In this document: one piece after another, positions 6,023-60,720 of the stretch
Numbering within the stretch: position 1 is the stretch's first letter
How the letters are laid out: each line of letters starts with the position of its first letter
Assembly: GCF_004010195.1 (NCBI RefSeq)
Contig: NC_057718.1
Coordinates: 63,781,905-63,845,904 of the forward strand
Direction: 5' to 3'
Length of the DNA: 64,000 nt
From: Chiloscyllium plagiosum
Taxonomy: Eukaryota
Made by a program: the position numbers and the translations under genes
Notes under the pieces: generated by a model
Databases searched by the model: none
Seen by the model: only the letters and a program-made list of their open reading frames with translations
Told to the model about the DNA's origin: nothing

Positions 6023-6427
6023 TGTAGCGATTGGAACCAGGTGGACCTCATTGACTGTGAAGTCTTTGGTTGTTAATCTGGAGAAGGTGAGGACTATAGA
6101 TGCTGGAGAGTCAGAGTTGAAAAGTGCAATGCTGGAAAAGTACAACAGGTCAGGCAGCATCTGAGAAGCAGGAGAATCAACATTTTGGGCATAAGCCCTT
6201 CATCAGGAATGTGCAAGATCACATTCCTGATGAAGGACTTATGCCCAAAATGTTGACTCTCCATTATTAATCTGGGCCAATCGGGAGGCACTGACTGACC
6301 AATATTAACAGGGGATTTAGAATCTCCTCAATTCAGGGGACTGACTCCAAGCTGGCTGGCCACAGCCAATGTACTATGCTCAAGGGTGAGTTGGTGATGG
6401 GATACTGGCCTCAGTGCAGTTATTTCA
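6023..6427 (+). repeat. 5' LTR of the Gypsy element (contains insertion 6082-6266)
   Basis: TG...TTCA termini; aligns to 11001-11223; followed by PBS-like TGGCAATGGGA at 6429. Confidence 0.85.
6082..6266. mobile_element. Head-to-head Penelope pLTR mini-element with two decayed hammerhead motifs
   Basis: Inverted arms each contain CTGATGAAGG(G/A)CTTATGCCCAAAA; TSD TTAATCTGG at 6073-6081 and 6267-6275; absent from the 3' LTR. Confidence 0.85.
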
Positions 6428-6742
6428 GTGGCAATGGGAGGAAACAGTACATGCCTGAAGAACATGGCCTCACAACAGTCATCTTTGAGTTGGGGTAAGC
6501 ATTTCTGGCATCATGCCTTTATTTGGGAAGCTTGACCTATTTGATCTTGCTGTCGAAGACTGGGAAAGAATGCAATATTTTTTCTGGGAAAATGACATTG
6601 GGGCAGATGCAAAGCAATGAGTAATTCTTCTGACTGCTTGCAGACCTGCAGCATTTTCAGTTATAAGAGGTTTAACTTTCCCAGAAGCACCTGGCATTAA
6701 AACCTTCCAAGAGTTGCAGGAGTTTGTTAAGGAATATTAAGA

Positions 6743-7285
6743 TTCTGGATTAGTGGTGCTGGAAAAGCACTGCAGTTCAGACAGCATCCGAGGAGCAGTA
6801 AAATCAATGTTTCGGGCAAAAGCCCTTCATCAGGAATACAGGCAGAGAGCCTGAAGGGTGGAGAGATAAATGAGAGGAGGGTCTCCTCAGGCACTCTGCT
6901 TGTATTCCTGATGAAGGGCTTGTGGGCGGCACGGTGGCACAGTGGTTAGCACTGCTGCCTCACAGCTCCAGAGACCCGGGTTCAATTCCCGCCTCAGGCG
7001 ACTGACTGTGTGGAGTTTGCACATTCTCCCCGTGTCTGCGTGGGTTTCCTTCGGGTGCTCCGGTTTCCTTCCACAGTCACAAAAATGTGCGGGTCAGGTG
7101 AATTGGCCATGCTAAATTACCCGTAATGTTAGGTTAAAGGGGTAAATGTAGGGGTATGGGTGGGTTGCGCTTCGGCAGGTCGGTGTGGACTTGTTGGGCC
7201 GAAGGGCCTGTTTCCACACTGTAAGTAATCTAATCTAATCTAATCCAGAGTCTGGTTTCCAGCATCTGCAGTCATTGTTTTTACC
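6743..7285. mobile_element. Head-to-head Penelope pLTR mini-element, itself interrupted by an HE1 SINE
   Basis: 15-bp TSD TAAGGAATATTAAGA at 6728-6742 and 7286-7300; minus-strand hammerhead CTGATGAAGGGCTTTTGCCCGAAACATT (~6802-6837). Confidence 0.85.
6922..7240 (+). mobile_element. HE1-type SINE, young subfamily
   Basis: GGGCGGCACGGTGGCACAGTGG A-box, GGTTCAATTCC B-box, (TAATC)n tail; nearly identical to the copies at 14124 and 31766. Confidence 0.92.
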
Positions 7286-10200
7286 TAAGGAATATTAAGA
7301 CCCTAATTCTGCATTGCTATCAGTTTTATTCAGCTGTCAAAGAACCAAAGGAATCCATAGCAGGATATTTGTCAAGGTTAAGAAGACTGGCAGAGGGATG
7401 TGATTTTGGTTAATACCGAATGAGATGCTGAAAGATTTTTGGTATCTGGGATTAATGATGTAACCATGCAGAAGCATCTTCTAGCTGAAGCCCAACTGGA
7501 CTCCAAACAGGCACTGCAGCTGTGGCAAGTAGAGCATGGGAACTACAGCGCATCCCAATGGAAGTGGACACTCTCACCTATTCAACTGAGCTTGAGGAAC
7601 ACCATATGAGTATAGGTAATTGCAGAACCTCATACAGGCAAAATCCTGAGCAGAGGGACCCTAGGCTAGCCTACAGCAGAAACCCATAAAAAAGCCAAGC
7701 CCAGGCCAAGTGGCTAAAAAGTTCTTCAGGATCTGGGTGGCAAGCCATTGTAGTTGCCTCCAGCATGTGGACTCAAGACAGCAAAGGAGTCCTACAAGGC
7801 CTGACCTGAGTGAGAAAACTCATAGGCCAGTACCCAGGAGAGTGCACACCCTGGAAAGTCCCCCTATATGTGGGTTGGAATAATTAATGGTTAGTTAAAT
7901 GGTCACCCATTTCCCAAGGAGTTCAATACTGGTGCAGCTACATCTAGTGGTATCTGTCTTTATTAAGATTTGCTTGGGTGTCCAATCTTTAAGTTTGCAC
8001 AAGACCTCAGCCAGACTGAGAATATGCACTAGGGACTCATTGCAAATTAAGGATATGGCCTTGGTTCCAGTCTCCTGTGAGAAGCAGTTGGTGCAGTTAC
8101 CAGTAAGAAGCTTGGGCCCAAGCCCATTGGAGCGGAATTAGTTGAAAAAGATACACCTAGATTGGCTGAACATTTTTCAATTGGGAAATAGCTGCCTCAG
8201 TGAAGTCCTCGTAAAATAGTCAGGAGTTTTTCAAAAAGGGCTTAGCATTATTAAAAGGGCCAAAACCACTTTACATGTTGACCAGGAAGCAATCCTGTAA
8301 GTTTGCAGAGCACAATCTGTGCCATTTGCCTTCAGGGCAAACGTAGAGGGGAAAACCAGGAGGCTGGACAGCAAAAGAGTCACTAAACTAGTGTAGCTTG
8401 CAGAATGGGCAGCACCAGTCATACCAAATGTGAAGCCGAATGGCTCCCTTCGCCTTTGCGAGGATTTTAAGTAAACAGTAAACTGCTTCTCACAGCTGGA
8501 TAAATACCCAATCCCTCACAAAGAGGACTTGTACACAACGTTGGCGGGTAGGCTGTCCTTTATGAAGCTGAACATGAGCCATGTCTACCAGCAGTTGCAA
8601 CTGGATAAGGAGTCCCAGGCGTACGCCACAATTAACACCTGTAAGGGTTTATACCAATATACAAGACTGCCATTTGGGTGATCATCAGCCTTTTCTGGCA
8701 GACCACGGTGAATGTTTTATAAGGGCTACCCGAGGTTGTCATTTGTCTAGATGACATGCTAATAACCGGGAAGACCAATATAGAGCACTTGAAGAACTTG
8801 ATCATAGTGCTTAAACATTTCTCCCAGGCTGGTGTACACTTTAGAAGGGAAAAATGAAAGTTCCAGGCACCCCAAATGACTAACTTGGGTTGCAGAGTTG
8901 ACAAAACTGGGTTACACCTGTTGAGAGATGAAGTAAAGGTGATCAAAGGTGCCCTGGTTCCTATAGCTTCGGTCTTGACTTGGGTGGATGAATTATTATA
9001 GAAAATTCATATGTAATCTGGCCTCCATCTTAGCACCTTACACCTATTATTGAAAAAGGGTCAGCCTAAGGTTGCATAGCCAAGAAGTAGCCTTTACGGA
9101 AGTTAGGATGCAGCTATCATCATCTAAGGTGTTTGCCCACTATGATCAGAAGTGAGAGGAGGTAGATACAATGCCTCCCCATGCAATGTCGAGGCTCACT
9201 GATTGCCCAATGGAGAGGAATGCCAGATAGTGTATGCTTCCTGAACTTAGGCTGATGCCGATTCAATCATGCCCAGATTGCGAGGGAAGGTTTGGCGGTC
9301 ACCTTTGGTCTGAGGAAGACTCAGTTTTATGGATAGGAATTTGTCACAGTAACAGATCACAGACTCCTACTGGAGCTACTGAAGGAAGATAAGGTGGTGC
9401 TGCCCATAGCTTCCAGTAGAATTCAGCGGTGAGCACTTATGCTCTGCACATACAAGTACCAACTAGAACACCATCCAGGAAGCTAAGTGGCTAATGCAGA
9501 TGCCCTGAAACTCCTCCCACTGGCAGATGCTCCACCAGTCGTGTCTCTCCTGGAAGAGTCCATTCTGGATTTAAATTTCCTGGACATCCCTCCGGTCACC
9601 GCTGACAATATCTGACTGCGGACACAAAAAGATCCAGTCCTAGCAAAACAAAAACAGCTGGTGGTAATGGGGGAGACAGAAGGGCCATCGCAACCAGAAC
9701 TAAAACCTTTCTGCACCCAGTGAGACTAGATCACTGTAGAGGACAGCATATTATTCTGGGGAGCAAGAGTGATTGTCCCGAGTAAAGATTGCCATCAGAT
9801 ACTGGCTGAACTCCACCAGGGTCATCGAGGCGTTTCCAAGATGAAGATGCTAGCATGAAGTTATGTCTGGTGGCCAGGATTGGATGCTGACATAGCTGCA
9901 TTGGTGGGGCAGTGCCTAGAGTGCCAACAAGGACAAAAATTATCATCAGCAGCAACAATTCATAGAAATGGCCAGGTAAACCCTGGACCAAGTTCCATGT
10001 TGACTATGCTGGACATTTCATGGCTCAATGTTCCTGGTCATTGTGTACGCCCATTCAAAGTGGTTAGACATACACAAAGTTCATTCAGCAAACTTAGAGA
10101 TGATAATTGAGAAGTTGCGAGCATCGTTCGTGATAAAGGATTCCCTGAAGTATTCGTCATGGACAATGGAACACTATTTACCAGCAAGGAATTTGATTAC

Positions 10201-11000
10201 TTCCTGAAGTTGAATGGCATTCGGCACATAATGACAGCTCCATACCAGCCAGCATCCAATGGTCCGGTGGAAACAGCAGTCCAAACAATGAAGGCAGGCT
10301 TGAAGAAGCAGCTTGAAGTCTCATTTGATACCAAACTGTTCTGGTTGCTGTTCAACAATAGGACCACCCCTCATGCACAACAGGATAGCTCTAGCAGAGT
10401 TGCCAATGTGGAGAAGATTCCACACCAATTTAAACTTGATAATCCCAGACGTGGGGGGAAGAGTGAAATGGCAGCAGCAACACCAATGCTGGCCACATGC
10501 CTCCTCTAAGCATGAGAGACAATTTAATTCAGGGGCTGAAGTTTGGGTAGGAACCATGGGAAAGGCCCTGAATAGGTACAAGATGAGATTGATGTGAGGT
10601 CAGGTCCCGTGACTTACAAAGTTTGGGAGGGTGAGGCAGTCCTGAACAAACATGTGGATAACCTAAAAGCTGTTACCTCACAAACCAGGCAGAAGCAAAA
10701 CATACCTGGCCCCTCAGGACAGCCAGAAGGCCTGTCAGAAACTGTAGGTTCTCCCCCTCTGTTTAGTGTCGAGGAAACTTTGGAGTCCAAGATGGATCCA
10801 GCCTGGGCACCATTGCTGCCGGAAGAAGAGGAGGAAACGTTCCCGAGATGGTCCAGACACTAGAGACAAACTACGGTCTGGTACACATCACCCGTGTCAG
10901 AGAGTCCAAATCAGAGGAACCAGACCTGGGGCAAAAATGTTGAAGGAATAGCCACAAGAGGAAGATCAAGTCTCCATCCCTGGTTTTAGGGAGTGAGGGA

Positions 11001-11223
11001 TTTAGTGAATGGAAATCAGGTAGACCTTATTGACTACGTGATCCTTGATTGGGGTTGTTAACCTAGGCCAATCAAGAGGCACTGGCTCCAATATTAACAG
11101 GGGAGTTAGAATCTCCTCAGTTTAGGGACTGACTCTGAACTGGCTGACCACAGCCAGTGTACTCTGCCCAAATAAATAAAGTGTGACCTGGTGACAGATA
11201 CCAGCCTCTGTGCAGTTATTTTT
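11001..11223 (+). repeat. 3' LTR of the Gypsy element
   Basis: Preceded by the polypurine tract AGGGAGTGAGGGA (10988-11000); aligns to the 5' LTR; contains AATAAA; termini decayed (TT for TG and for CA). Confidence 0.85.
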
Positions 11224-12124
11224 TCTTTGTTTCCTTGCTGATCAGTCCAGTGAATCTTCACTGAACTGCTTCCAATGTCAATAGAGAACTCCCTGAACTC
11301 CCTCCCTAGAGAAGAGGTCCAAAACTATTCACATTTTTCCAGCTGTGATCTGAATATTGCCTTAAAGAGTTTTAGCAAGACTCACATTATCTATTACTCC
11401 ATTCCCTTTGAAATAAAGGCCATCATTCCATTTGCTTTCGCTATTATTTGCTGAACATATATATTTTGAGATTTATGCATGGAAGACCTTAATCCCTCTA
11501 TGTTGTTGCTTTCTGCAATTTTTCTCCATTTAAATAATATTCAACTCGCCAATTCTTCCTTGCCAAAGTGAATAACTTCACATTTCCCCACATTATATTC
11601 CATCTGCCAGGTTTTTGTTCACTGATATAACCTGTCTACATGCCTCTATAGCCTCTTCATGTCATTCTCATCACTTATGTCATCCACCTATGTTTTATCA
11701 TCCACAACACCTAGTTATAATACATTTACATTCTGATTCAAGTCAATAAGATATATTGTAAATAAATGTGACTCTAGCACTGATCACTGTGGCATTTCAC
11801 GAGTTACAGGTTGCCTTATCTCAACTCTCTGTCTCCAATTAATTAACCAGCCCTCTATCCATGTTGATATACTGCCTCCAACACCATAGACTCTTACCTT
11901 ATTAAGTAGTTTAATGTGCAGTGCCTTATCAAATGTCTTCTGAAAATCTAAATACATTACATCTCCTTTTTTCCACTCTATTGATCCTGTTTGTTACCTC
12001 CTCAAAGAATTCTAGCAAATTAGTCAAGCATATTTTCCCCTTTGTGAAGTCATGCTGATCCTGTTTAATCATATAATGCATTACTAAATCTGCTATTATA
12101 TCCTTTGTAATGGACTCTAACTAG

Positions 12125-14002: not shown

Positions 14003-14490
14003 ACAGTGAATCGGATTCCTGTAAGTGTGGTGTTGATGATCCGATGTGTGTTCTCTATTTCTGTGTTTTTAATTATTACAAAGGTGTCATCCACATATCT
14101 GACCCAGAGTTTGGGTTGAATTTAGATTAGATTAGATTACAGTGTGGAAACAGGCCCTTCGACCCAACAAGTCCACACCGACCCGCCGAAGCGAAACCCA
14201 CCCATACCCCTACATTTACCCCTTATCTAACACTACGGGCAATTTAGTATGGCCAATTCACCTGACCCTGCACATCTTTGGACTGTGGGAGGAAACCGGA
14301 GCACCCGGAGGAAACCCACGCAGACACGGGGAGAACGTGCAAACTCCACACAGTCAGTCGCCTGAGGCGGGAATTGAACCCGGGTCTCTGGCGCTGTGAG
14401 GCAGCAGTGCTAACCACTGTGCCACCGTGCCGCCCATAATTTGCGGTAAGACTGTTTGTTCTAATCTTTGCATTACTGCTTCTGCGATGT
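14003..14490 (-). mobile_element. Inverted internal Penelope RT fragment, interrupted by a SINE
   Basis: Reverse complement matches ~15633-15800 (WVRYVDDTFVIIK region) with a few substitutions. Confidence 0.85.
14124..14437 (-). mobile_element. HE1-type SINE, young subfamily
   Basis: Full length; TSD AATTT at 14119-14123 and 14438-14442. Confidence 0.92.
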
Positions 14491-16029
14491 AATGATCCAG
14501 GTAATGATTACAGATGCACACAACAGAAATTGCGCGCCAAAAAATCGTTCATTTCAAAAACCACCAATCAGGAATGGACCCGGACCATAGAACAGGCCGT
14601 CACCATAGGACAGAACAGGACCACACACCGCAAAAAAAAGGCACTAAAAGAAAAAATGGCCAAACTAACACACAACAGAGAGGACACCACAACACACGCC
14701 TGGGTTAGAAACCTCTCCCACAGACAGCTCACAGACACGGAAAGAACAATACTGGCCAAGGGACTCAACTACAACCATAGGGACGCCAAGACGGCAGACT
14801 TCCTAGCAGCACTAGAATACATACTGAGGAACAATGGACTGACAGAAGAGACACAACAAACAGTGAGACAAAGTACCGTACCCCTGATAACAAGGAAAAG
14901 ACAAACACATAACTTCAACACCAAGGAGAGGGAAGCACTAAAAGCACTAAGAAGCGATAAGAATACAATCATACTACCAGCAGACAAAGGCAGAATAACG
15001 GTCATCCTGGACAAAGCAGACTACATCCAAAAAGCGCAACAATTACTTGCAGATACCAACACCTACCAAAAAAGGGAGTTTGACCCCACCCCACAGCTCA
15101 CCAATAAGATAAATAACACACTGAGGAACCTACAAAGAAACGGACAGATAACCAGGTCGGACCTACAAAGAATAAAACCTGAAAGCAACAACATCCCCAG
15201 ATTCTACGGTCTACTTAAAGTGCACAAACCAGACATCCCACTCAGACCCATAGTATCACTACCAGGGACACCATCACACACAAACTGGCCAAAGAACTAC
15301 AGCAGAAACTGAAACACCTGATCAGCGGATCCAGACACACTATACAGTCAACACAGGAATTCTTGGACATCATCAGAAATATATACATAGACAAGGAAGA
15401 AACCATGGTCTCATTCGATGTAACGGCACTGTTCACCTCTATCGACAAAACCCTAGCCAGAGAAACAATAGCCAACCTGCTGGACATACAGAACAGACAA
15501 CAGGATATTGAACCTATCAACAAAGACGGCATACTCAAACTTCTAGACCTGTGCCTCACAACACACTTCACATTCAACAACCAAATATATGAACAAATCA
15601 ACGGCACACCCATGGGCTCACCCATCTCTGGACTCATAGCAGAAGCAGTAATGGAAAGATTAGAACAAACAGTCTTACCGCAAATTCAACCCAAACTCTG
15701 GGTCAGATATGTGGATGACACCTTTGTAATCATTAAAAACACAGAAATAGAGAACACACACTGGATCATCAACGCCACACTCACAGGAATCCGATTCACG
15801 AGAGAGGAAGAAAAGGACAACCAACTCCCATTCCTAGGCGTGATGGTACAGAGAACACCTAACAGAGAATTCACCACAAAGGTATTCAGGAAAGCCACAC
15901 ACACAGACCAAGTCCTGAACTACGAAAGCAACCACCCCAACACACACAAAAGAAGTTGCATCAAGACACTATTCAAAAGGGCCACAACACACTGCAGCAC
16001 ACCAGAACTCCAAAAAGAGGAAGAAGAAC

Positions 16030-16133
16030 NNNNNNNNNNNNNNNNNNNNNNNNNNNNNNNNNNNNNNNNNNNNNNNNNNNNNNNNNNNNNNNNNNNNNNN
16101 NNNNNNNNNNNNNNNNNNNNNNNNNNNNNNNNN
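16030..16133. other. Assembly gap (N run) inside the Penelope element
   Basis: Run of Ns between the RT thumb and the YIG motif. Confidence 1.
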
Positions 16134-16460
16134 TACATAGGACAAACAGGAAGACAGCTAACGATCCGCATCCATGAACACCAACTAGCCACGAAACGAC
16201 ACGACCAGCTATCCTTAGTAGCCACACACAGAGATGACAAGCAACATGAATTCGACTGGAACAACACTATTGGACAAGCCAAACAGAGAACAGCCAGGGA
16301 ATTCCTGGAGGCATGACACTCATCCACAGATTCAATAAATAAGCACATCGATCTGGACCAAATATACCGACCACTGCAACTGACAACCAGAAGCAGCAGA
16401 TTCAAACCACTACAAATGCCGGAGAAAAGATCACAGAAGCGCTTCACAGGAGGCTCCCAA

Positions 16461-16500
16461 GCACTGAGGATGTCACCTAGACAGGGGACGAAACGTCTGC
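16461..16500 (+). ncRNA. Minimal type-I hammerhead ribozyme motif in the Penelope pLTR
   Basis: GCA-CTGAGGA-T-GTCACCT(AGAC)AGGGGAC-GAAA-CGTC-TGC: core intact, stem I GCA/TGC, palindromic stem III ACGT, predicted cleavage after C16497. Confidence 0.8.
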
Positions 16501-16559
16501 AACACAAATTCCCAGCTCAGCGAACAGAACCACAACAATGAAATATACTTACTGTTGCA

Positions 16560-17827: not shown

Positions 17828-17965
17828 AAGCAAAAACAAAAATTCCTGGTAAAGCTCAGCAGGTTTGGCAGCACCTGTGGAGAGAAATCAAGGTTAATGT
17901 TTCAGGTTGAGTGACCCTTCCTCAGAACTCTTCTTACAGTATCCGCAGTTCTTTCGGTTTTTATT
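17828..17965 (-). mobile_element. Neptune-type Penelope pLTR fragment with degenerate hammerhead
   Basis: Minus strand CTGAGGAAGGGTCACTCAACCTGAAACATT; related pieces at ~19060-19160(+), 22420-22505(+), 39140-39240(-) and 61075-61160(+). Confidence 0.65.
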
Positions 17966-19690: not shown

Positions 19691-19861
19691 AATGGAGTCT
19701 GAAAACAAACGTTGTTTGGTTTAAACATAGACATCGCTTTGTTGTTTAATTTTGCTCTGCTAAAGTTACTATATTGTTAATAAGTTGCTAAATCTTATCT
19801 AAGCTACAGAGCAGTGTTGAGAATTGATCGGTTATAGAATCTGAGATTGATTATTGAAAAG

Positions 19862-20451
19862 AGTTGAAAAAATGTGGTGCTGGAAAAACACAGCAGGCCA
19901 GGCAGCATCCAAGGAGCAGGAGAATCGACGTTTCGGGCATAAGCCCTTCTTCAGGAATCTTTCCTGGTTGGGTCCAAATTGTGTTGGTTTGAATGTAGTC
20001 TGGAGTCCATGCGGGGTCAGTCGGTTCCGTAGGCAGGTGCTGAGGAAAGAGATGTGGCTGTAGTAGCGAGTTTGTCTCAGGACGTGGCTGAAGGGCTTCA
20101 GGGCAGAGGAGATGACCTGGGGGGGTGCAGTGAGAGAGGGACTCACTGAAATCCTGGTAGAGGGAGGAGGAGAGCTTCTTCAAGGTAGGCATCCTTGCAA
20201 GAGGATTCGCAGTAGGTTAAGATCAACTAGGAGAAAGTGAAGACTGCAGATGCTGGAGTACCAGAGTTGAAAGATTTGGTGCTGGAAAAACACAGTAGGC
20301 CAGGCAGCATCCGAGGAGCAGGAGAATCGACGTTTTGGGCATAAGCCCTTCTTCAGGAATCTTTTCTTTCCTGAAGATGGGCTTATGCCCGAAATGTCGA
20401 TTCTCCTGCTCCTCGGATGCTACCTGGCCTGCTGTGTTTTTCCAGCACCAT
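19862..20451 (-). mobile_element. Non-autonomous Penelope derivative: pLTR, ORF N-terminus, pLTR (minus strand) plus an inverted pLTR
   Basis: TSD ATTG(A/T)TTATTGAAAAG at 19846-19861 and 20452-20467; three hammerhead motifs; internal segment encodes MPTLKKLSSSL.../FSHVLRQTRYYSHISFLSTCLRNRLTPHGL, a PLE N-terminal HxxFLxxC-type motif. Confidence 0.85.
19921..19960 (-). ncRNA. Intact minimal type-I hammerhead ribozyme motif
   Basis: Minus strand AGATTC-CTGAAGA-A-GGGC(TTAT)GCCC-GAAA-CGTC-GATTCT: stem I 5 of 6 bp, stem II 4 bp, stem III palindrome ACGT, GUC cleavage triplet. Confidence 0.8.
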
Positions 20452-20713
20452 ATTGTTTATTGAAAAGTCTGGTTAGGAACCATTGGGGTTAATTTTGAGC
20501 ATCTTTCAAGGTTTTAATGTTACTATGCTGTGAATACAGAGGTAGGAAGACTAGTTGTCTGCTTCTGTGTCATAACATCTCTACCAAAGAGAACCTTCTG
20601 GAAGTCTAATAGTTAGTTTATTTAAAATTGCTATTTGCTTTTATCATGCCATGATTGTCTTTTAAATTATTTGCACGCACTTTACAAGAGATTTTGCCTT
20701 GTTTATAAATAAG

Positions 20714-21620: not shown

Positions 21621-22799
21621 ATTAGATGAGGGAAGTTGGGTAAGTAAGTGGCCACACATTTTTCTCTGTTTTGGAACTAGAAACTGAAATGGGAGCTGGA
21701 CTGTTATAACTGAAACACCAGGAGAGTTTTGCAACTTAAAAATCAAGTTGTGCTTATTCTTTGAGCTGTGTGACACAATGATCCTTTTGAAGCAGTGAGA
21801 ATGAGAATTGGAGACTGAATGGTACCAGAGGTCTTTTATGTTAAGGAAATTCTGCCTGACAACAGTCTGTTGATTGGTTGAATTGCTAGGTGTTAATAAA
21901 CTGTTGAGTGCCAAGGTCAGCAGAGAAGAAACTTCCAGAGCCTGCAAATAAAAAGCACTCTTTCTCGGTCTTTCACTCTCTCTCTCTCTCTCTATGCAGG
22001 TGATGAAAAACAATACAGCTTAAAAGGAAGAATTCTAAAAGAAGGGACAACCTGACCAACCAGCAAATTGAAGGACAATGACACACCACAGACAACAGTG
22101 TGTTGCCATTCTTAAAAGCAAAAAGACTTCAAGAAAATAATTTCACACCTTGTTTCTGGACTTTTGATCTTCAGAATTTTGTTTACTCTGTCTATTATTT
22201 CTTACCCATGAGTAAATGGTTAGAATTTGGAATAAACTACCTAAGAGGTAGCGAAGGCAGAGTCAATCATGGCTTCCAGCAGAGAAGTGGATAATTATCT
22301 GAAGAGAAAAGAGGGCTGAATTTTACCAGGTATTAGTTCTGTATTAAATTTGGCAAGTTTATCTCCATGAGGCTGGGCAAGATTTGTTACATTATGGGCT
22401 GAATCTTGCATTCTTTCATTCTGAAGAAGGGTCACCTGACCCAAAACATTAATTCTGATTTAATGTTGCCAGATCTGCTGAGCTTTTCCAGCAACTTCCA
22501 TTTTTGAATCTTATATTTTTTGGTTAAGTCTGAGTTGTATCAGGTTATGTTCGAGGGATTTCTGCAGGAAGGCTGAATGGATTTTCTCATACTCTCTGAC
22601 CAAATTTGGTTCATTAATTACCTCCACCACCCTACAATGTCCCTCATATCTGATTCCGGTCCCATTTTACCAAGTGGTATTCCCCTCAGCAGATAGCTCA
22701 GAATTCACCCATTTCCCTTGTGTGTCTTTAAAAGCTCAATGTGAACCCACACAATTCCTATCAGTGTTGAGCTGCTCTGCACAGTTTCTGAGATTTGCT

Positions 22800-23025: not shown

Positions 23026-23590
23026 TCAGCATTTTCTTTCCACTACCTCACTGACTCTATCTCTGCTTCTGTACACATCCCCCAGCAAGGATCAAGCTCC
23101 ATCACTCTCACTACTGCCTGCACCATTTTCCCTCAAGCACTGTCACCCACCTCAGGCCCCACTGCCACCAATCTTAGACCCCTGACACTACTAACCTTTC
23201 ATGACCTCTGAGCTACCTACTCACTCACTCAGGACAACTCCCCAACTGCACAAAATAGTAAGAGCTGTGCCACCAACTTTCATCTCCCACGATACCTGCT
23301 TCTCTCTCCTATATGGGGGTTGGAGATGTGCTGGGATCAGAGGGTTTGTAGAGGCTGCTGTATGTTGCATATCGATGTCGGTGGACATGGGGTATGGGTA
23401 ACCAGTGCCCAGGGAACATGCCCTAAGATGTTGGTGCACAGTGTCCACTTACTTTGGAGTAAGTGGTGAGTCGATTTTGCTAGGTACCTGCTCTGGTTTC
23501 CATGTTGGGTTTTCTTGATGTCTAGCTTGTTTGTCATCTTTGTGAAGTCAGAAAACTGAATAGTGATGAGGGAAGGTGGACTCTTTTAAG

Positions 23591-23810
23591 TATCTTGGAG
23601 TGGAGAGTGTGGTACTGGAAAAGCACAGAGGTCAGGCAGCATCCAAGGAGCAGCAGAATCAACAATTCGGGCATAAGCTCTTCATTAGGAATGAGGGCTT
23701 ACGCTCGAAACGTCGATTCTCCTGCTTCACAGATGCTGCCTGACTTGCTGTGCTTTTCCAGAACCACACTCTCAACTCTAATCTCTAGCATCGGCAATCT
23801 TCACTTTCTC
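23591..23810. mobile_element. Head-to-head Penelope pLTR mini-element
   Basis: TSD CTCTTTTAAG at 23581-23590 and 23811-23820; inverted arms with hammerhead remnants (GGGCTTACGCTCGAAACGTCG). Confidence 0.85.
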
Positions 23811-24129
23811 CTCTTTTAAGGAGGTGTTAAATGAGTAATAATTCCCCCTTAACTGGCAAAATGTCGCTGCTTGTCAACTGCTCCAGGCATGGCAGACAGA
23901 GGGAATCTGTAACCCCACCTTGCCAACAGGGACCTGAAGGTCTTTGTGGATAGATGGTGTGGGCAGTCACTGCCAATGGAGCATGGCATGACATATTGAT
24001 GACCACTGTCCAAGATGGAATGCCAAAGAATCTGGAGTTCCCAATTAACTATTTTGACTTTCATGTCAAGAATCGTCACTGTTAAGTTTCTATCCAGAGA
24101 ATGGAAAATTGGATAATTGCATATCAATG

Positions 24130-38900: not shown

Positions 38901-39474
38901 TTGGAAGAGGTCCCTGCAAAGATGATATTTTCATCATGGGAGAAGTGTGTGTGCAAGGCTGCAGTCAAGTCAGATGACTCAGATCAGAAGCAGCCATTGG
39001 GGTTTCTGGGAGCATAAGTGGGTTGTTTAAAAGGCTTTACTCAGTGCTATGGGACTTTGTCCCAGTTTTAATGAAAAAGGGAAGACCCTCCAGCGCTTCG
39101 ACCTCACCTTCACACACTTCCAGACAACTATTTCCCAAAACGAAAACAGAAGTTGCTGGAGAAGCTCAGTAGGTCTGGCAGCATATGTGAAGAGAAATTA
39201 AAGTTAATGTTTCTGGTCTGGTGACCCTTCCTCAGAACTGAATGACAAAACTGGAGTTATTTTTTTCTGGATGGTCACTCTTGGCATTAACCATGAGTAT
39301 TTTAATGTTCCAGTTGGAAATTTAAAATTTTCTTTGCTTGACCACAATGATGGTGATCCCACAGGATTTTATTATCCAGCCAGGAAAAAAGCCAGATTCT
39401 TTTTGAAACAGTGATCTATTTCCAATTTCTTCTATTTTCTCCCAACTTCTTTACAGTTTCTGATGAATTGCTAT

Positions 39475-48450: not shown

Positions 48451-48591
48451 CCACATATATGTACAATGTCACTGATTTCTTCACAATGATGAAGTTGTTC
48501 CCAAAGTTGGAGGGTTAGACATCCCATGCAGAGAAAAAAGTTTGAAGTCTACAAAGACCTGTATTGTGTTAGCCAGACATCCTAGTTCTGA

Positions 48592-48776
48592 GATGGAAAT
48601 GTGTTGCTGGAGAAGCGCAGCAGGTCAGACAGCATCTAGGGAACAGGAGAATTGACGTTTCGGGCATCAGCCCGAAACGTCGATTCTCCTGTTCCCTAGA
48701 TGCTGCCTGACCTGCTGCGCTTCTCCAGCAACACATTTCCATCTCTGATCTCCAGCATCTGCAGACCTCATTTTCT
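48592..48776. mobile_element. Fold-back Penelope pLTR mini-element (near-perfect palindrome)
   Basis: TSD CATCCTAGTTCTGA at 48578-48591 and 48777-48790; arms 48590-48665 and 48670-48745. Confidence 0.9.
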
Positions 48777-49106
48777 CATCCTAGTTCTGATAACAGTGAT
48801 TGAAAGAGTGCAGAGCAGAGTTGGAATGGTGCCTCCAACATTTAAGAACTTTGCCATCATGTAGTTAACGGAGAATTGTTCTTATATAATACATCCTCGT
48901 TTTCACTGCCTTCTGAGATTTTCCTTAGTGTGTTAAAAATATGTAATCTATTATCCCCAATTACGTTAACTATGTGCCTACTAACACTTACATCACGAGT
49001 AATTTTATTGGTTGAGTTTCAAATTTAAATAAAGATTTCTATCTTGCTTCCCATAATCAACATATTTTTGTTTGATATCATGTTTCATGTTAATTTTCTT
49101 TCACAG

Positions 49107-54205: not shown

Positions 54206-54805
54206 AGGCTTTCACCTGCACCCACCACCAGCTCAGAGGCTTTCACTTACATCCTCTACCCGGTCAGAGGCTTTCACCTGCACCGTCCACCAGCTCAGAG
54301 GCTTTCACCTACATCCTCTACCCGGTCAGAGGCTTTCACCTGCACCATCCACCCGGTCAGAGGCTTTCACCTGCACCATCCACCCGGTCAGAGGCTTTCA
54401 CCTGCACCGTCCACCAGCTCGGAGGCTTTCACCTGCACCCACCTCCAGCTCAGAGGCTTTCACTTACATCCTCTACCCAGTCAGAGGCTTTCACCTGCAC
54501 CCTCCACCAGCTCGGAGGCTTTCACCTGCACCCTCCACCCAGTCGGAGGCTTTCACCTGCACCCTCCACCTGCTCGGAGGCTTTCACCTGCACCTCCACC
54601 TGCTCGGAGGCTTTCACCTGCACCCTCCACCTGCTCGGAGGCTTTCACCTGCACCCTCCACCCAGTCGGAGGCTTTCACCCGCACACTCCACCCGGTCGG
54701 AGGCTTTCACCTGCACCCTCCACCCAGTCGGAGGCTTTCACCCGCACCCTCCACCCGGTCGGAGACTTTCACCTGGATCCTCCACCTGCTCGGAGGCTTT
54801 CACCT
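54206..54805 (+). repeat. Minisatellite, ~31-bp unit, ~19 copies
   Basis: Unit C(G/A)GAGGCTTTCACCTGCACCCTCCACC(TGCT/CAGT/AGCT/CGGT); successive CGGAGG at 54605, 54636, 54667. Confidence 0.95.
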
Positions 54806-54899
54806 TTGTGGATACGCTATCTAGGTTAGACTTGGGGACACAATCTGATGAACACATCTCTGACATGGGTCTCCACAATTGGTCAAGGAAGAAATTCAG

Positions 54900-55063
54900 T
54901 CGCGAGTGTGTTGTTGGCAAAGCACAGCAGGTCAGGCTGCATCCAAGGAGCTTATGCCTGAAACATCGATTCTCCTGCTCCTCGGATGCTGCCAGACCTG
55001 CTGTGCTTTCCCAGCAACACTCTCTCGACACTGCTCTCCAGCATCTGCAGCCCTCACTTTCTC
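54900..55063. mobile_element. Head-to-head Penelope pLTR mini-element
   Basis: TSD AAATTCAG at 54892-54899 and 55064-55071; inverted arms. Confidence 0.8.
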
Positions 55064-55169
55064 AAATTCAGACATTTATAGGACTGTCAGACTCTAGGCA
55101 GCTGGTCATCTCCGGCAAAAAGATAATCCCATATTCTTTGCCATTAGTAATTCACCAAAATGATATTTC

Positions 55170-55392: not shown

Positions 55393-56529
55393 CTTAGTGT
55401 TTCCCCAATGCATTACAGTCACTGACATCTTGTCATTGTCAGCTAGAGGAATATCACATACAGGGGAGCAATCAGACAGTTCCAAACATGGGCTTTCATT
55501 GACAGCCAGCAAAAAGGAACTCAAAGGAAACGAATATGGACTGCAGTTCACTCCCACAATGTGAATCAAATGTGCCCTTGGCAATTCTTGATGGTCTTCT
55601 GCACCCAGCTCACACTGACAGGAACCTGGGGTCAGTTGGGTCCTGTCTGCCTTGTAGGGGTTGATGCAGCTGAGCTCGATTATCTACAAGCAGAGCTCCC
55701 TCTACATCAATACCTTCACTCTTTTCCTCAAAAAGGTCGTCCTGTTCCCCAGCTCCTCATTGCTGGTTTTAACTGCACAGAGCACAGCATTCCAGGGTGG
55801 TGCAGTACCAGTCTGCCTGCACTACACTGAGAAACCAGACTTTCAGACCTACAACCTGCAACAACTCAGTGAAGACACCACACTGGCACATTATATCGAA
55901 AAGGAAGAATCTGCCATGCTCTTACCCCTTTCCCATCCCAGACCCACATCCCAGACCCTCATTAATCATTCAACTTTCTACTGCATTCAGTGGAACCTGT
56001 TGTCACATTTAACATGACAAATTATGCGGTGAGGATCCCCTCCTCCCAAAGCACACTTCCATAAGTAACCAGGCACTTTTAGATAGCAAACTCCTGCTTT
56101 TAAATGACTGGTGCTAATGTCTACATCACTAAGATGAGAATGTTAATTTAGCTCACAGCAAGGGGATACAATCTATTTTTGACGAATAATTGATGCATAA
56201 CCATGTTCACTCTGCATGCATTGCATTTAGGTGAAGAAATGTTTGGAAATGAAATATTGCTACGGTTTACAAACCCATGCTTCATATATTTGCTACTTGA
56301 GTGTCAGATATGAAGCCCTTGCCCACCCACGCTGGGTACTATCCCAGCCATTTTCCAGTTTCATTTCACATCTAGAAACGGCAAGTGATTGTATGGCATG
56401 CAGTTTGCGATGGGCCCATAATCACTAGGCTCTGCCTGGTAACCAGGTGCAACTCTATGACCCCTTTTATCTTGCCAGCCCATTTCCCTTCATATGGAGA
56501 CATACCACGTTGAACTGCACCTCTAACTG

Positions 56530-57172
56530 GGTAGCACGTTGGCACAGTGGTAAGCATTGCTGCCTCACGGTGCCAGGGATCTGGGCTTGATTCCTGCTTC
56601 CTGTGTGGACTTTGCAAGTTCTCCCTGTGTCATTGTGTCATACAGCATAGAAACAGATCCTTCAATTTAACTCATCCATGCTGACAGAGTTTCACAAACT
56701 AGTCCCAATGCCCTGTGTTTGGCCCTTATCCCTCTAAACCTTCCTATCCATGCACCTCTCCAAATGTCTTTTATAGAGTCATAGGGTCATGCAGTACAGA
56801 AACAGACTCTTCAGTCCAACTTATCCATGCTGACCAAGTTACACCTTTAAAAATAATTGATTGAAAATCATTGTAAGTCATATTAATATATTGCCTTGTT
56901 CGAGCAGTAGGGAGTCTGTTCATAAACACTGTCTGTATGAGTTTTCTACAGGTCTTCCAGATTCCACCCACAGTTCAAAGATGTGCAGATTGGGTGGATT
57001 GGCCACGTTAAATTGTAGTTTCCAGGGATATGCAGCCTAGGTAGGATAGCCATAGTAAATGCAGAATGATGGGGTTAGGGTGGATGGCTGGCTCTGGGTG
57101 GGGTAGTCTTTAGGGGTCAGTGCAGACTTAATGGGCAGAATCGCTTCCAACTGCACCATGGGGATTCTATGA
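56530..57172 (+). mobile_element. Old HE1-type SINE split by minus-strand CR1 3' pieces
   Basis: Head at 56530-56630, tail at ~56960-57172; CR1 tails at 56635-56840. Confidence 0.6.
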
Positions 57173-57624
57173 ACTGTTTTTCCTACCACCTGAACTCTGG
57201 TGTTACATCTTAAAGATGCTCATCCTGGTCCTCTCTGCTTCTCCTGTGGAGGCCATGATGGTAGTCACTGTCAATTATTTCCCGTTCCATCATCTCTCCG
57301 ATGCTGTCCTCCATACTTCTGTGCACCTTGATTTTACCGCCTTCACCAAATGTTCCTGCTTTCTCCTTCCTCCGGCTGGTCTCCTCAATGCTCCTGAATG
57401 TGCCTACAAATTGCACCTCCTTGAAACCCTCTTAACATTCAATGGATCGATACCATACTCTATTCTCTTCAGGCATCTGACTGTGATGAGCTGCCTCTAG
57501 ATATGACTGAACTGACTCCTGACCCACTGTGTTTGCAGTTCCCGACTGATAATACGTGATTCTGATGGCAGTGGTCTTACAGGGCTGACCATTACCCACT
57601 GTCCTGATGGTACTTGGACATAGT

Positions 57625-58528
57625 TGTCATTTATGTAAATGATTTGGATGAGAATATAGAAGGCATGGTTAGTAAATTTGTGGATGAAATCAAAATTGGT
57701 GGCATATAGACAGTGAAGAAAGTTTTCTAAGATTACAAAGGAATCTTTATCAAATGGGTCAATGGGCTGAAAAATAGCAGATGGAGTTCAATCTGGATAA
57801 ATGTGAGATATTGCATTTTGACACAATAAATGGGGGTAGGACTTTATACAATTTACAGTAAGGCCTTGGGTAGTGTTGTAGAGCAGAGGGTCCTAAATGT
57901 TGAGTATATAATTCTTTGACGTTTGTGTCACATATGGACAGAGTGGTTAAAAAGGCCTTAAATACACTTACCTTCCTTGCTCAGTTGAGGTTATGTAGGA
58001 CATTGGTGAGGCCTCTTCTGGAATATTGTGTCCAGTTCTGATCACCTGGTTATAGGAACAATATTATTAAGCTGGAGAGGGAGAGATTTACCAGGATGTT
58101 GCCAAGTTTGAAAGGTTTGAGTTATAAAGAAAGGCTGGATAACTGGGACTTTTTTCACTGGAGCTTAGAAAGTTGAGAGGCAACCTTGTAATAGTTATTA
58201 AAATCATGAGGAATATAAATAGGTGTCTTTTCCCCTAGGATGGGGGAATTTCAAGACTAGGAGGGGCATTTTTAAGGTGAGAGGAGAGAAATTTAAAAAA
58301 GACATGAGGAACAAATTTTTTACAGAGAGGGAAGTTCATATGTGGAATGAATATCCTGAGGAAGTGGTGGCTATGGGTACAATTACAATATTTAAAAGAC
58401 ATTTGGATATGTACAGGAATAGGAAAGTTTTGGAAGAATATGGGCCAGGAACAGGCAAGTAGGGCTAGTTTAATTATTTTCGACTTGGACTGAAGGGCCT
58501 GTTTCTGTGCTGTTGACTCTATCTCTAT
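57625..58528 (+). mobile_element. CR1 LINE, 5'-truncated, with 3' end
   Basis: YVNDLDENI, SKFVDE, RPLLEYCVQF, FFTER..WNEYP. Confidence 0.88.
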
Positions 58529-60494
58529 ATCCCCTCGCAGTGAGTGGCCTGAAATGACAACTGAATGTGGCCAAGACCTGGAACTGTGTATAGATTGTGC
58601 CAATGACTGTGGAACTGGGACCTTCTGTATGACACTGCCCTTCTCTTTCCCCACCTGACTAAATCAAAGACCTCACCCAACCAGTTTCCAGCATGCCTTT
58701 TGTTTAAATAAACATGCAGTGTGTTTTCCAAACAGCCAGCTGACAGGCACATGCTGTAGATTTAAACTGATGTCTCGATGTGCCATGCATCAAGATATCA
58801 GCCCCCTCCCCACTAACAAGCAGCCTGCCTATGTGCCTGTACATGAGAGGTCGTGAATACATCAATACTTCTGGCTCTAGCTAAAGTGCTAACTGAATGG
58901 CACGGCAGGCAGGTAAGGCACAGATACTCTAAGGGTGCAGGTTAGTGCTAAGTGAGCAAGTGCTAAGACAGCAAGCAAGCAGCCTGGCCCAGCGTGAGCT
59001 GGGTGCCTGTCCCTGTGTGCCAACTCCCTATTAGAGCTTTCAACTCCAGTTGCCAGTGCATCCTGTTGTGCATCTTAAGTCGATTGGAGAGGTGCCATGA
59101 TGGTCATGAGGGGTTCACAAATACAAAATGCCAATGTTTGTTCATGAGGGGTGTATCCACCTGGTGCCTGTTGATCATGGCCTGTGATACCATTTGATGC
59201 TGAGCAACACAGAAGCTCCTAGCACACAGCAGTGAGGTGAAGTCCTTATGATGAAGTCTTCCATTCGCCTTAAGTCCTTCCCTGTATGACTGCTAAAGTT
59301 TAGCTCTCCTAACCGGGAGTCTGCCCCTGTTTCTGTCTCTTTCTCCAATCGTCTGTCACCATAGAACTATTCTGAGTGAACCAATTAAACCCTTACAATA
59401 AGCTCTGCCCTATCACAGGGCAGAATTGAATGTTGCCACCAATCAAATCTGGAACTGAGTGTTCTCTGTATCCCTGGTACAGTGAATATGCAGGGAATGG
59501 ATTTAATCAGGAACTCCAAAATTACCTCATCAGCCATAAAGTTTTTTGGAGCATCCTGAGTTTGAAAGTTATGATGTGAATGATTTTCTTTTTTCCTTTT
59601 ACTAAAATAATGGATATGTTTTAAACCTTAGGAGCATGTTGTACTCATGTATATTCAAACAAAATTAAACTGTTAGACTAAAATAAACTGGACTTAACCG
59701 GCTTGCTTCAAACTTAAAAATGACCAGATAATCTATTTGTTTGTGTGAGATCTACAGCTAATTATTTAAACTATCTTCAACTCTACACTTTTTTTAGAGA
59801 ACTTCTCAGCTCTCTGTTTGGCTGTTTGAAATCTTTAATTCACATATGTGCTTTTTGGTTGCTTTGAAAAACACAAATGAATTCTGTAATGGAGAGATCC
59901 TTTTACTTTACTCAGTTCTTCTGTGGAATGAGAGTTGATGGTTTTGACAGATAGCTTCTGAAGAGGATTATGTTTACTTCAAGTGACTGTTCAAATTATG
60001 TTTGTTTATTTTGGACAGAACTACGAGCTAGTGGCTTTTCAAGTGTTTTGTCAAATAATGTTTCTCTGTTTTGAAAGATTTGTGAATTTCTGGAGAGGAT
60101 AATGGTTTTGAATTGCCTATTTGAATGATGTTTTATATTTACCAAAATTATGACTTGCAAACTTTTATACGTATATGGAGATGTATTGGATGAGAGGTTT
60201 GAGTTGCAGGGAGTTGAGAGGGTAGAGAGTGTAAAGGGTGCCAAGGGTGAGATGTGAATGAGTGATGACGGCATTAAAGATTATGGGGTAAAGGTACTCA
60301 AAGTTGGGTGAGGGGCCTGAAGGGAAGGATGAGAAGCATGGAAGGATGGATGAAAGTGGAATTAAAATGATTGCAGGGATGAATAGGTGGTGAAGAATGG
60401 AATGGATTGAGGGAGATAAGTGATTGGGGTAGGAGTTGAGTGTAAGGAATGGGTGATGAGGTTTAAAGGGGAGCTGAGGGAATAGGAGGATGAG

Positions 60495-60720
60495 GAAAAT
60501 CACAGCAGGTCAGGCAGCATCAGAGCAGCAGGAGAGTGGATGTTTTGAGCATAAGCCCTTTGTCAGGAATTTTTTCATCAGGAACTTTCTTGACGAAGAA
60601 CTTATGCTTGAAAAATCGATTCTGCTGCTCCTCGGATGTTGCCTGACTGATTGTGCTTTTCCAACCCTACACTCTTTGACTCTGATCTCTAGCATCTGCC
60701 GTGCTCACTTTCACCAAATC
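60495..60720. mobile_element. Head-to-head Penelope pLTR mini-element (older)
   Basis: TSD GGAGGATGAG at 60485-60494 and 60721-60730; degenerate hammerheads; inserted in a purine-rich tract. Confidence 0.8.

Follow-up and report, generated by a model that had tools for sequence, protein, structure and literature searches.

Short Head-to-Head Insertions in a Shark Genome Are Very Probably Stubs of a Penelope-Like Element

Introduction

Insertions of EN+ Penelope-like elements (PLEs), as described by Arkhipova et al. (2013; PMC3846280) and Craig et al. (2021; PMC8557442), carry a head-to-head inverted, 5'-truncated copy, an optional tail of 30-40 nt on one side (a tail also described in PMC11167929) and a target-site duplication (TSD) of about 8-10 bp, together with a pLTR that enters the start of the ORF and partial tandems. 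The inverted pLTR, the tail and the TSD are already in print. For the Poseidon element of Anolis (PAc), Frangieh et al. (2024; PMC11167929) report that each of the two strands is nicked and extended in vitro, and that reverse transcription starts at two internal sites, which define the tail; hammerhead cleavage was dispensable, uncleaved RNA being the main substrate and cleavage-dead mutants inserting normally, and head-to-head joining was not reconstituted in the reactions described. The minimal hammerheads of metazoan PLEs were surveyed by Cervera and De la Pena (2014; PMC4209133), who already recorded both single motifs left by truncated PLEs and motifs paired on opposite strands at distances of 100-700 bp; the passages of that survey considered here do not mention shark elements. 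Non-LTR retrozymes (Li, Clavereau and Pollet, bioRxiv 2026.07.22.740005), with one cartilaginous fish among those reported, are, like the insertions treated below, non-coding, pLTR-derived and equipped with a type-I hammerhead; yet they form head-to-tail tandem units with a ribozyme in each, whereas the present insertions are head-to-head and dispersed. The origin of inverted and tandem PLE insertions and the role of the hammerhead are called open in this literature (PMC8557442, PMC11167929, PMC4209133), and our literature search found no description specific to sharks.

Insertion Anatomy and Target Sites

We analyzed a window of 64,000 nt from Chiloscyllium plagiosum (NC_057718.1, positions 63,781,905 to 63,845,904), for which a preliminary description had proposed seven insertions sharing one head-to-head design. 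All seven start coordinates (6082, 6743, 19862, 23591, 48592, 54900 and 60495; E1 to E7 below) proved exact, and repeat search, BLAST and alignment together placed an inverted, 5'-truncated head-to-head copy in each, the repeat search finding the inverted arms of six and BLAST and alignment those at 60495. The insertions comprise 15 pLTR arms. Arm positions are counted from the first base of helix I (+1, window position 20360 in E3), with the cleavage site between +32 and +33.

E1 (6082..6266, 185 bp) consists of a minus arm with tail (6082-6210, +1 to +129), a 12-nt centre, a plus arm (6223-6262, +1 to +40) and 4 nt of filler, within a 9-bp TSD (6073-6081 and 6267-6275). E2 (6743..7285, 543 bp; 15-bp TSD at 6728-6742 and 7286-7300) has a minus arm from 6743 to about 6884 (about -47 to +93) that includes upstream, pyrimidine-rich UTR, and a plus arm that runs from about 6881-6887 (about -20) to about 6924, where a SINE replaces about +22 to +83 before the tail continues to 7285. 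It is this nested SINE (6924..7225, plus strand; about ten related copies in the window), by name presumably the shark SINE HE1, that brings the copy to 543 bp. E3 (19862..20456, 595 bp; 11-bp TSD at 19851-19861 and 20457-20467) has three arms and 270 nt of ORF: minus arm A (19862-19958, +1 to +96), minus unit B (19960-20360, +1 to +401, with pLTR, tail and ORF start; unit length about 401-402 nt), a 7-nt centre and plus arm C (20368-20453, +2 to +87). E4 (23591..23810, 220 bp; 10-bp TSD at 23581-23590 and 23811-23820) begins with 7 nt of filler at its outer end, followed by a minus arm (23598-23692, about -3 to +97) and a plus arm with tail (23694-23810, +12 to +130). In E5 (48592..48776, 185 bp; 14-bp TSD at 48578-48591 and 48777-48790) a minus arm (+13 to +95) and a tailed plus arm (+13 to +129) overlap over the entire self-complementary helix II (48662-48673). 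E6 (54900..55063, 164 bp; 8-bp TSD at 54892-54899 and 55064-55071) joins, with a short overlap, a minus arm at 54900-54951 (+42 to +93), the sole arm to start beyond the cleavage site, to a tailed plus arm at 54945-55063 (+11 to +130). E7 (60495..60720, 226 bp; 10-bp TSD at 60485-60494 and 60721-60730) has a minus arm (60495-60570, +1 to +76), a 16-nt centre with a short re-copied piece of the minus-arm end, a tailed plus arm (60587-60715, +2 to +131) and 5 nt of filler.

The term "mini-elements" used in the preliminary description thus suits the five copies of 164-226 bp and not those at 6743 and 19862; likewise, the pairing of one full with one 3'-truncated arm holds in six insertions, where one arm has the tail and the other lacks it, and not in E3, both outer arms of which are tailless. 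Published EN+ PLE units share the inverted copy, the one-sided tail, the partial tandem and the pLTR that enters the ORF start, but those described are longer (PMC3846280, PMC8557442), whereas six of the seven insertions here are pLTR only, without ORF. Head-to-tail tandem repetition, as in retrozymes, is absent from these six and occurs only in E3, with one core carrying a changed base.

Exact TSDs flank all seven insertions (9, 15, 11, 10, 14, 8 and 10 bp in coordinate order), giving a measured range of 8-15 bp against 8-16 bp claimed earlier and about 8-10 bp in published EN+ PLE insertions (PMC3846280, PMC8557442). Among about 3,000 random pairs of 41-nt windows set 150-600 nt apart, at least 8 nt were common in 2.8% and at least 9 nt in 0.8%, and of 56 mismatched flank pairs none reached 9 nt and one reached 8. 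Compared with PAc, the AT preference is weak (TSDs 68% AT, window 58%). A DNA transposon, such as a MITE, that arose from a pLTR palindrome would also be short, palindromic, TSD-bounded and abundant, but the variation in TSD length, the asymmetric and variable ends without a fixed terminal repeat, the seven different centres and the retroelement ORF sequence in one copy leave this reading extremely improbable; the variable TSDs and ends refute it, in keeping with the retro-mobilisation first proposed. Since the seven centres all differ, the palindrome is not spreading as a unit. The idea of a distinct class doing so is also unsupported in view of the greater resemblance of arms to their partners than to other copies, and of the same head-to-head design in a copy from a different PLE family (61931-62824, 11-bp TSD) that is longer and contains EN.

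Element of Origin

The preliminary description attributed the arms to hammerhead-bearing pLTRs of an RT/GIY-YIG PLE. The ORF start in E3 (19961..20192, minus strand; ATG at 20192, +169; a frame change in a C run) and its homologs bear this out at the level of protein homology: the fragment is 81% identical to a shark protein and matches the N-terminus of homolog P0096 (E 2e-9, pairwise). Among five homologs longer than 800 aa, Pfam recognized GIY-YIG in four and RVT_1 also in three, most scores lying below the Pfam cut-off; a full HMMER search found a full-length RT fused to the N-terminus, which a word-index protein search had not, while Pfam gave no match on N-terminal fragments and a protein atlas no usable lead. 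Because the E3 pLTR enters an ORF start whose homologs have RT, a cysteine linker and GIY-YIG, the source, as traced by this homology, is an EN+ PLE, and we hold with high confidence that the insertions are stubs of it. A zinc finger-like cysteine motif lies between RT and EN in the distant homologs P0043, P0094, P0096 and P0098, and the clade, judging from these proteins, may be Neptune; such a motif is common also to Nematis (PMC8557442). PAc belongs to a different clade from these cysteine-linker homologs, and here, unlike in PAc, the long ORF appears to start past the tail (PMC11167929). Two candidates were set aside: P0075, a repeat-driven false match, and an intact-looking RT at 14440-16316, whose hammerhead and 3' end differ from those of the family.

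Hammerhead Motif

The motif, known here from its sequence, has the core bases, helices I and II, bulge after A9 and palindromic helix III of a minimal type-I hammerhead. The family's sole fully intact core lies at 19927..19954 (minus strand), with all 11 core bases, the extra base after A9, a 4-bp helix II and the palindromic helix III. It agrees with the metazoan PLE hammerheads in its type-I core, the base between 9 and 10.1, the G10.1-C11.1 pair, the short helix I and the palindromic helix III, and differs in helix II, which has 7-8 bp in Schistosoma (PMC4209133). Of nine arms covering the core, three retain all 11 bases, one of them also the palindrome. An exact search for the core pattern gives one match in the window and none in 100 shuffles, in viral or metagenome contigs or in prokaryotic genomes; with one core change allowed, a minimal-hammerhead (min-HHR) descriptor gives seven matches in the window, four of them in the family, against 0-1 in 10 shuffles. 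An Rfam search returned no hammerhead match at E<=1. In other families in the window the helix sequences differ and the pairing is maintained. Erosion of the cores at CpG sites, as initially noted, is evident: 31 of 104 CpG positions (28 of deamination type) depart from the majority base, against 71 of 895 elsewhere.

Arm Ends and the RNA Template

The 3' ends form two clusters about 35 nt apart, in agreement with the published 30-40-nt tail. All six tail arms end at +129 to +131, and six of eight tailless arms at +87 to +97, the exceptions lying at +40 and +76. The tail (20230..20265, minus strand, about +96 to +131) occupies the interval between the two end sites, and read depth falls steeply past it. 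PAc likewise has two 3' end sites, 30-40 nt apart, 111-118 nt after the stem II ATG (PMC11167929); here the corresponding distance from the equivalent ATG is about 123 nt. "Full" and "truncated" arms are thus the presence and absence of the known PLE tail.

At the 5' side, 8 of the 15 arms begin within -9 to +2, 2 further upstream (E2 reaches 20-47 nt upstream of +1), 4 at +11 to +13 and 1 at +42; none begins at +33+/-2 (95% upper bound 18%), and 14 contain the scissile position. Unlike in the published EN+ PLE units (PMC3846280, PMC8557442), the 5' ends concentrate at the border of helix I, although, counted per insertion, an arm of the +1 cluster occurs in four of seven and the clustering is marginal (p ~0.05); the sample is these seven insertions, chosen for shortness. 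The junctions, said earlier to lie at or just upstream of the hammerhead motif, do lie upstream of or inside its core, and this places them 10-40 nt before the GUC cleavage site rather than at it.

Sequencing reads were compared with a 408-nt reference that includes 7 nt upstream of +1; the rows discussed are the best supported, with 91 more joints and 1,282 more loose ends besides. About 57,000-59,000 contigs per DNA run touch the reference. Relative to the ORF start, the pLTR core is covered at least 20 times as deeply by DNA contigs and at least 65 times as deeply by RNA reads. Among the listed 5' loose ends, those at 20360 rank first (1,204 and 1,176 contigs), and the sequence beyond them agrees poorly (0.30-0.35); because the reference includes just 7 nt upstream, longer copies would produce a pile-up there too, and agreement would likewise fall if there were several subfamilies that differ in their UTRs. 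Six listed ORF-to-pLTR tandem joints from two DNA runs, of the type found inside E3, have the pLTR side at 20358-20362 and the ORF side at 19973-20164.

Could the +1 cluster reflect ordinary early 5' truncation of long PLE cDNAs, as an RT pause, an intron boundary or a homology edge? Heavy 5' truncation is usual in PLE insertions (PMC8557442, PMC8969392), E2 extends into the UTR, in D. virilis one end of an intron coincides with the helix I 5' end (PMC4209133), and the E3 arms have AG directly before +1. The other copies, however, lack this AG, and the listed tandem joints hold their pLTR side within 5 nt as the other side ranges over 190 nt. Moreover, the centres of E1, E3, E4 and E7 are just 1-16 nt long, and therefore these arms cannot reach far, whichever UTR they belong to. 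We consider this explanation unlikely; that the RNA 5' end is defined has somewhat better than even support.

Release of short RNAs by the ribozyme, mobilised in trans by the PLE protein as a dedicated non-autonomous class, was the mechanism favored at the outset. The motif matches the min-HHR descriptor, and both mobilisation in trans via the pLTR (PMC3846280) and non-autonomous PLE-derived retrozymes (bioRxiv 2026.07.22.740005) are published. Furthermore, in the best-supported listed inversion joint (20328/20360; 9 contigs in X2, 7 in X12, none in two RNA runs) one arm begins at the first base after GUC, and in one table the deepest joint listed is a tandem one from 20328. For the bulk of the copies, processing is nonetheless unsupported, because the cleavage site lies inside 14 of 15 arms and at the start of none. 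In the reads, no run has 20328 among its six listed loose-end places, and both 20328 joints are explicable by short homology: +1 to +4 are complementary to +33 to +36, and this helix-I pairing could account for the cleavage-site joint. A min-HHR needs a dimer (PMC4209133), which a head-to-head pair cannot form because its motifs sit on opposite strands; cleavage-dead anole mutants insert as normal, and no two copies have a centre in common. The model is contradicted for the bulk of copies and, as a whole, very unlikely, while the read joint hints at a minor cleaved class. RNA-end pile-ups are absent from a poly(A) single-cell library, which is uninformative for such ends. PAc genomic copies, like those here, retain the uncleaved hammerhead (PMC11167929), and we regard an uncleaved template as quite probable for most copies.

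Joining of the Arms

Partner arms resemble each other unevenly. Variants off the majority base are common to partners at 17 of 486 positions, against 16 of 4,533 between insertions, with E3's three non-independent arm pairs supplying 9 of the 17; identity in E4 (0.86) and E7 (0.79) is no closer than between unrelated arms (mean 0.85). Gene conversion could add to the likeness. We lean toward the view that each insertion is a pair of short pLTR copies set 5'-to-5' in one event on uncleaved RNA, a known insertion type in an unusually short form, with each copy likely made anew at its own target from the beginning of the element RNA.

A PLE protein would start cDNA synthesis from each nick of a staggered target cut, with uncleaved pLTR RNA as the template. 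Within the 5'-most pLTR, reverse transcription would begin near +95 or +130 and run off an RNA 5' end that would lie close to +1, probably at the transcription start, yielding a 95-130-nt cDNA akin to the retroviral strong-stop product. The far site would be used mostly at one nick and the near site at the other. Repair would then link the two cDNA ends as a blunt joint, through filler, or, once they are trimmed back, at a short complementary patch, of which helix II is an example. In L1 twin priming, too, both nicks prime and an inverted 5' part comes to lie inside the TSD; that part is copied from a different stretch of RNA, whereas here both arms copy the same stretch. Since the anole template needed about 55 nt of RNA past the downstream start, which the stubs lack, they are probably dead ends.

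Alternatively, from the same source and template, the second arm could arise by fold-back: finished cDNA, or antisense RNA, snaps back and is extended as a hairpin before it switches to the opposite end of the target. The palindromic head-to-head junctions of PLEs have been interpreted in print as products of self-priming (PMC3846280), and such priming fits the variants common to partner arms, the joins of E5 and E6 on short self-complementary patches, and tailless ends that are less tightly placed than tail ends, two of them lying apart at +40 and +76; the helix-I pairing could also yield the 20328/20360 joint. Yet six of eight tailless arms end in the 11-nt window where the anole element predicts the second RT start, in which a jump after fold-back need not end, arm C of E3 is as close to A (0.973) as to its neighbour B (0.959), and the anole protein extends both strands. 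Fold-back therefore appears possible but improbable, and two-nick priming is the mechanism we moderately favor. That strong-stop-like cDNAs in shark genomes come from a dimer priming at both nicks, with a minor class ending at the cleavage site, we advance as a doubtful proposal.

The stubs are short and very numerous, with both ends and the centre fitting within one read; therefore a genome-wide table could separate two-nick priming from fold-back, and could also measure how often the template was cleaved. If the proposal is true, shark genomes would preserve, in very large numbers, natural traces of how PLE retrotransposition begins, and the minor class would be evidence that inserted RNA is cut in vivo by a metazoan minimal hammerhead.

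Folding and Annotation

For annotation, the stubs resemble MITEs or microRNA hairpins, yet very probably derive from a retroelement. Rfam returned two miRNA matches and one snoRNA match below gathering scores, which we judged chance or hairpin matches. A>G plus T>C changes make up 68 of 215 places in RNA reads, against 37 of 170 and 40 of 184 in the DNA runs (p 0.04 versus X2), with no excess over transversions (p 0.58); because these are multi-copy pile-ups from different individuals, we do not count them as A-to-I editing. The dsRNA hairpin suggested earlier is favored by structure prediction: if transcribed, a head-to-head copy is predicted to fold into a long hairpin at -155 kcal/mol (z -23), and a single pLTR no better than shuffles (z 0.2).

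Anatomy of the Seven Insertions

Our analysis places all seven insertions (E1–E7) where the preliminary description had put them, with starts at window positions 6082, 6743, 19862, 23591, 48592, 54900, and 60495. Flank comparison gives each an exact TSD (9, 15, 11, 10, 14, 8, and 10 bp, in order), bearing out the TSDs of varying length claimed there (8–16 bp, measured here as 8–15 bp); as controls, at least 9 nt are shared by 0.8% of about 3,000 random window pairs, and 9 nt is reached by 0/56 mismatched flank pairs. Alignment resolves 15 arms, that is, pLTR copies joined head-to-head (5′-to-5′). Five of the seven insertions are 164–226 bp long; E2 is made longer by a SINE, and E3 (19862–20456) has three arms plus 270 nt of ORF. 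We number the pLTR from the first base of helix I (+1; window 20360, minus strand), with the core from +5, GUC cleavage between +32 and +33 (20328 being the first base past the cut), the tail end near +131, and the ORF ATG at +169.

All six arms with a tail end at +129 to +131 (in E2, whose tail is of a different subfamily, this end was assigned by inspection), whereas among the eight outer tailless arms six end at +87 to +97 and two at +40 and +76. The "full" and "3′-truncated" arms distinguished earlier represent a known signature, because the difference in length is the published tail of 30–40 nt, optional at one end of Penelope-like element (PLE) insertions (PMC8557442; PMC3846280). Inverted pLTRs and short 3′ extensions are likewise standard PLE features (PMC8969392). 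For an anole element, the accessible part of the report (PMC11167929) describes the tail as the interval between two internal RT start sites and both target strands as nicked and extended; core mutants insert normally, and that part gives no RNA reads ending at the cleavage site.

As an internal control, we used a third PLE family at 61931–62824, which is also head-to-head: its arms measure about 250 nt, the plus arm includes sequence coding for EN, and there are a one-sided extension, an 11-bp TSD, and hammerheads at 62014–62047 (minus) and 62750–62783 (plus). Because this different, EN-containing family is built alike, the head-to-head design is how PLEs normally insert in the Chiloscyllium plagiosum genome. 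The literature already covers the inverted pLTR, the tail, and the TSD, as well as minimal hammerheads and pairs of motifs on opposite strands. Non-autonomous pLTR derivatives are described there as tandem retrozymes (bioRxiv 2026.07.22.740005), and a literature search, with most subscription journals, Repbase, and Dfam outside its reach, found no description of these shark stubs. What remains useful is the fixed 5′ edge, together with a joint at the cleavage site that may reflect either cleavage or short homology.

Mean arm identity is 0.92 within insertions (8 pairs) versus 0.85 between them (78 pairs), and non-majority variants are held in common at 17/486 positions within insertions versus 16/4,533 between; E3 supplies 9 of these 17, and E4 and E7 are without excess likeness. 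The centres between the arms differ in seven of seven insertions. Partner-arm likeness, together with centres unique to each copy and with arms and TSDs of varying length, argues against a self-copying palindromic unit, and the proposal of a distinct class spreading as a unit is not upheld; that the copies, MITE-looking in the preliminary description, are MITEs is scarcely credible.

Hammerhead Motifs

The min-HHR descriptor has seven matches in the window, four of them within the E1–E7 family, against 0–1 in shuffles (n=10), in keeping with the claim of hammerhead-bearing arms; Rfam at E<=1 returned no matching hammerhead model. All 11 core bases are intact in three of the nine arms spanning the whole core, and among these nine only 19927–19954 combines them with the helix III palindrome. 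CpG erosion, also proposed earlier, is evident: a non-majority base occupies 31/104 CpG positions versus 71/895 others. In E3, two hammerheads on one strand lie 402 nt from each other (19927–20360, minus) and form a retrozyme-like tandem pair, whose upstream core has one base changed.

A transcript across a copy is predicted to fold into one long hairpin, as had been anticipated. Hairpins at 6825–6917 and 54924–55005 gave sub-threshold Rfam miRNA matches, and annotation might mistake pLTR stubs of this sort for microRNA precursors.

5′ Ends and Mechanism

Eight of the 15 arms start within −9 to +2 (both in E1, all three in E3, the left in E4, both in E7); two start further upstream (E2), four at +11 to +13, and one at +42. 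Compared with starts spread evenly over 110 nt, this clustering gives p 1e-4 when arms are counted, but only about 0.05 when insertions are. Arms starting inside the motif are joined via short overlaps, which in E5 span the whole of helix II. Mapped relative to the GUC, the breakpoints cluster upstream of or inside the motif, much as the preliminary description held, with none of the 15 arm starts at the cleavage site. For the bulk of the copies, the ribozyme-processed templates it postulated are contradicted by 14/15 arms containing the scissile position and 0/15 starting at +33±2. Moreover, the two motifs of a head-to-head copy sit on opposite strands, so within one copy they cannot pair as the dimer considered necessary for minimal hammerheads (PMC4209133), and mobilization of ribozyme-cut RNAs in trans seems very unlikely.

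Overall, we lean toward run-off cDNAs made on uncleaved RNA from both nicks and joined at their ends. On this view the template would begin near +1, and RT would enter its first pLTR at either of two sites, about +95 or +130, and run off its end. A staggered cut would prime such synthesis at each of its nicks; the resulting pair of cDNA ends would be joined, and the filled-in stagger would become the TSD. E3 would come from RT jumping to another template. For other PLEs, promoter activity of the pLTR, with an initiator-like element, has been published (PMC2377424; PMC3846280). A second arm made by fold-back is conceivable but doubtful. RT pausing or an intron edge, as what sets the 5′ cluster, is an improbable alternative to run-off at a transcript start. 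As for splice-like features, the tail (20227–20265, minus; also tails of E1 and E4–E7) resembles a 3′ splice site, with a motif like a branch point close to where the short arms end (about +97), then a pyrimidine tract, and an AG at +133/+134 directly past the long-end site and 35 nt ahead of the ATG. Judged by sequence, it may serve as the acceptor of an intron in the 5′ UTR, the lariat tail coinciding with the PLE tail; among the joints listed from the reads none is a splice joint, at an ORF depth too low to reveal one. Upstream of +1, the E2 UTR (6838–6884, minus) has a pyrimidine tract with terminal AG at −15/−14, a second acceptor-like site, just ahead of which the E2 plus arm begins.

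Sequencing Reads

Reads of 4 of 24 runs were placed on 19960–20367 at 80% likeness: DNA X2 (56,723 records) and X12 (59,236), raw RNA X21 (2,472), and probable RNA X17 (5,700). Depth on the core is 1–2e7 in X2 and about 1,950 in X21, versus at most 9e5 and 30 on the ORF start, and it falls off abruptly where the tail ends; therefore pLTR-only copies far outnumber ORF-bearing ones, contig depth being a poor copy count. Joints and loose ends are the best-supported ones, a further 91 and 1,282 lying beyond those listed. Among those listed, six tandem joints have their pLTR side at 20358–20362 and their ORF side at 19973, 20101, 20103, 20158, 20159, and 20164, the type found inside E3. The top listed 5′ loose ends are 20360 (1,204 and 1,176 contigs), 20359, and two positions at which alignments are clipped by variants of the reference itself; agreement past 20360 is 0.30–0.35, on a reference holding only 7 nt upstream of +1. 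Symmetric palindromes probably collapse in contigs.

The best-supported opposite-strand joint listed, 20328/20360 (9 contigs in X2, 7 in X12, 0 in X21 and X17), has one arm beginning exactly past the GUC and counts against the run-off reading. So does the joint linking 20328 with the end of the tail, the deepest of those listed in its table. Neither proves cleavage, because helix I makes +1 to +4 complementary to +33 to +36 in the former and a 3-nt homology is available to the latter. Opposite-strand joints from 20257–20258 to 20351–20360 occur in all four runs, the inverted part apparently being the tail alone, set against +1; they may represent inverted arms consisting of the tail alone, or else points at which the alignment breaks within the variable stretch. 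RNA reads map to both strands (about 60:40), the pattern to be expected of copies riding in host transcripts; they showed no pile-up of ends, in a library unsuited to reveal one. RNA editing over pLTR copies was not demonstrated in the reads examined.

Source Element and Other Features

The PLE origin proposed for the arms is supported by E3, where the pLTR runs on through the tail into the start of an ORF whose homologs carry RVT_1 and GIY-YIG. The fragment's protein matches are labelled Hemiscyllium, Stegostoma, and Rhincodon, and the 52 residues past a frame change match 6 longer proteins among 9 candidates (69–81% identity); one of these, P0003, gave 100 matches against all representatives. 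Domains were scanned in 13 proteins picked for greater length: four of the five exceeding 800 aa match GIY-YIG and three of these also RVT_1, mostly under Pfam cut-offs, the fifth being a false match. The P0096 N-terminus aligns directly with the window fragment (E 2e-9, pairwise), and P0014 bridges the same N-terminus to the region ahead of the RT in P0096. In the long homologs, RT and EN are separated by a region with a cysteine motif, a feature of Neptune and Nematis (PMC8557442), and Neptune and Poseidon are the groups given for vertebrates (bioRxiv 2026.07.22.740005). Because of these two points, the source element likely belongs to Neptune. No intact element with exactly the E1–E7 pLTR was obtained. 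In an older relative at 4720–5435 (minus), the decayed end of a GIY-YIG EN is followed by UTR sequence and by a related pLTR. The gene model P0005, annotated as acid phosphatase-like, has the N-terminal domain of this PLE at its end and is probably a misjoined or exonised insertion.

A second PLE family (14006–16540, plus) retains an RT (Pfam RVT_1), an EN end, and a hammerhead at 16464–16497; a search for its TSD found none. Ahead of these lies, in inverted orientation, a copy of a piece internal to the RT (15635–15799); a SINE later split this copy. Solo hammerheads at 17896–17925, 22421–22450, and 39206–39235 are older relatives of the E1–E7 family, with a longer helix II and a different yet pairing helix I. 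A tandem repeat array (54206–54805) lies just upstream of E6, and 10111–10509 is presumably an integrase-like fragment.
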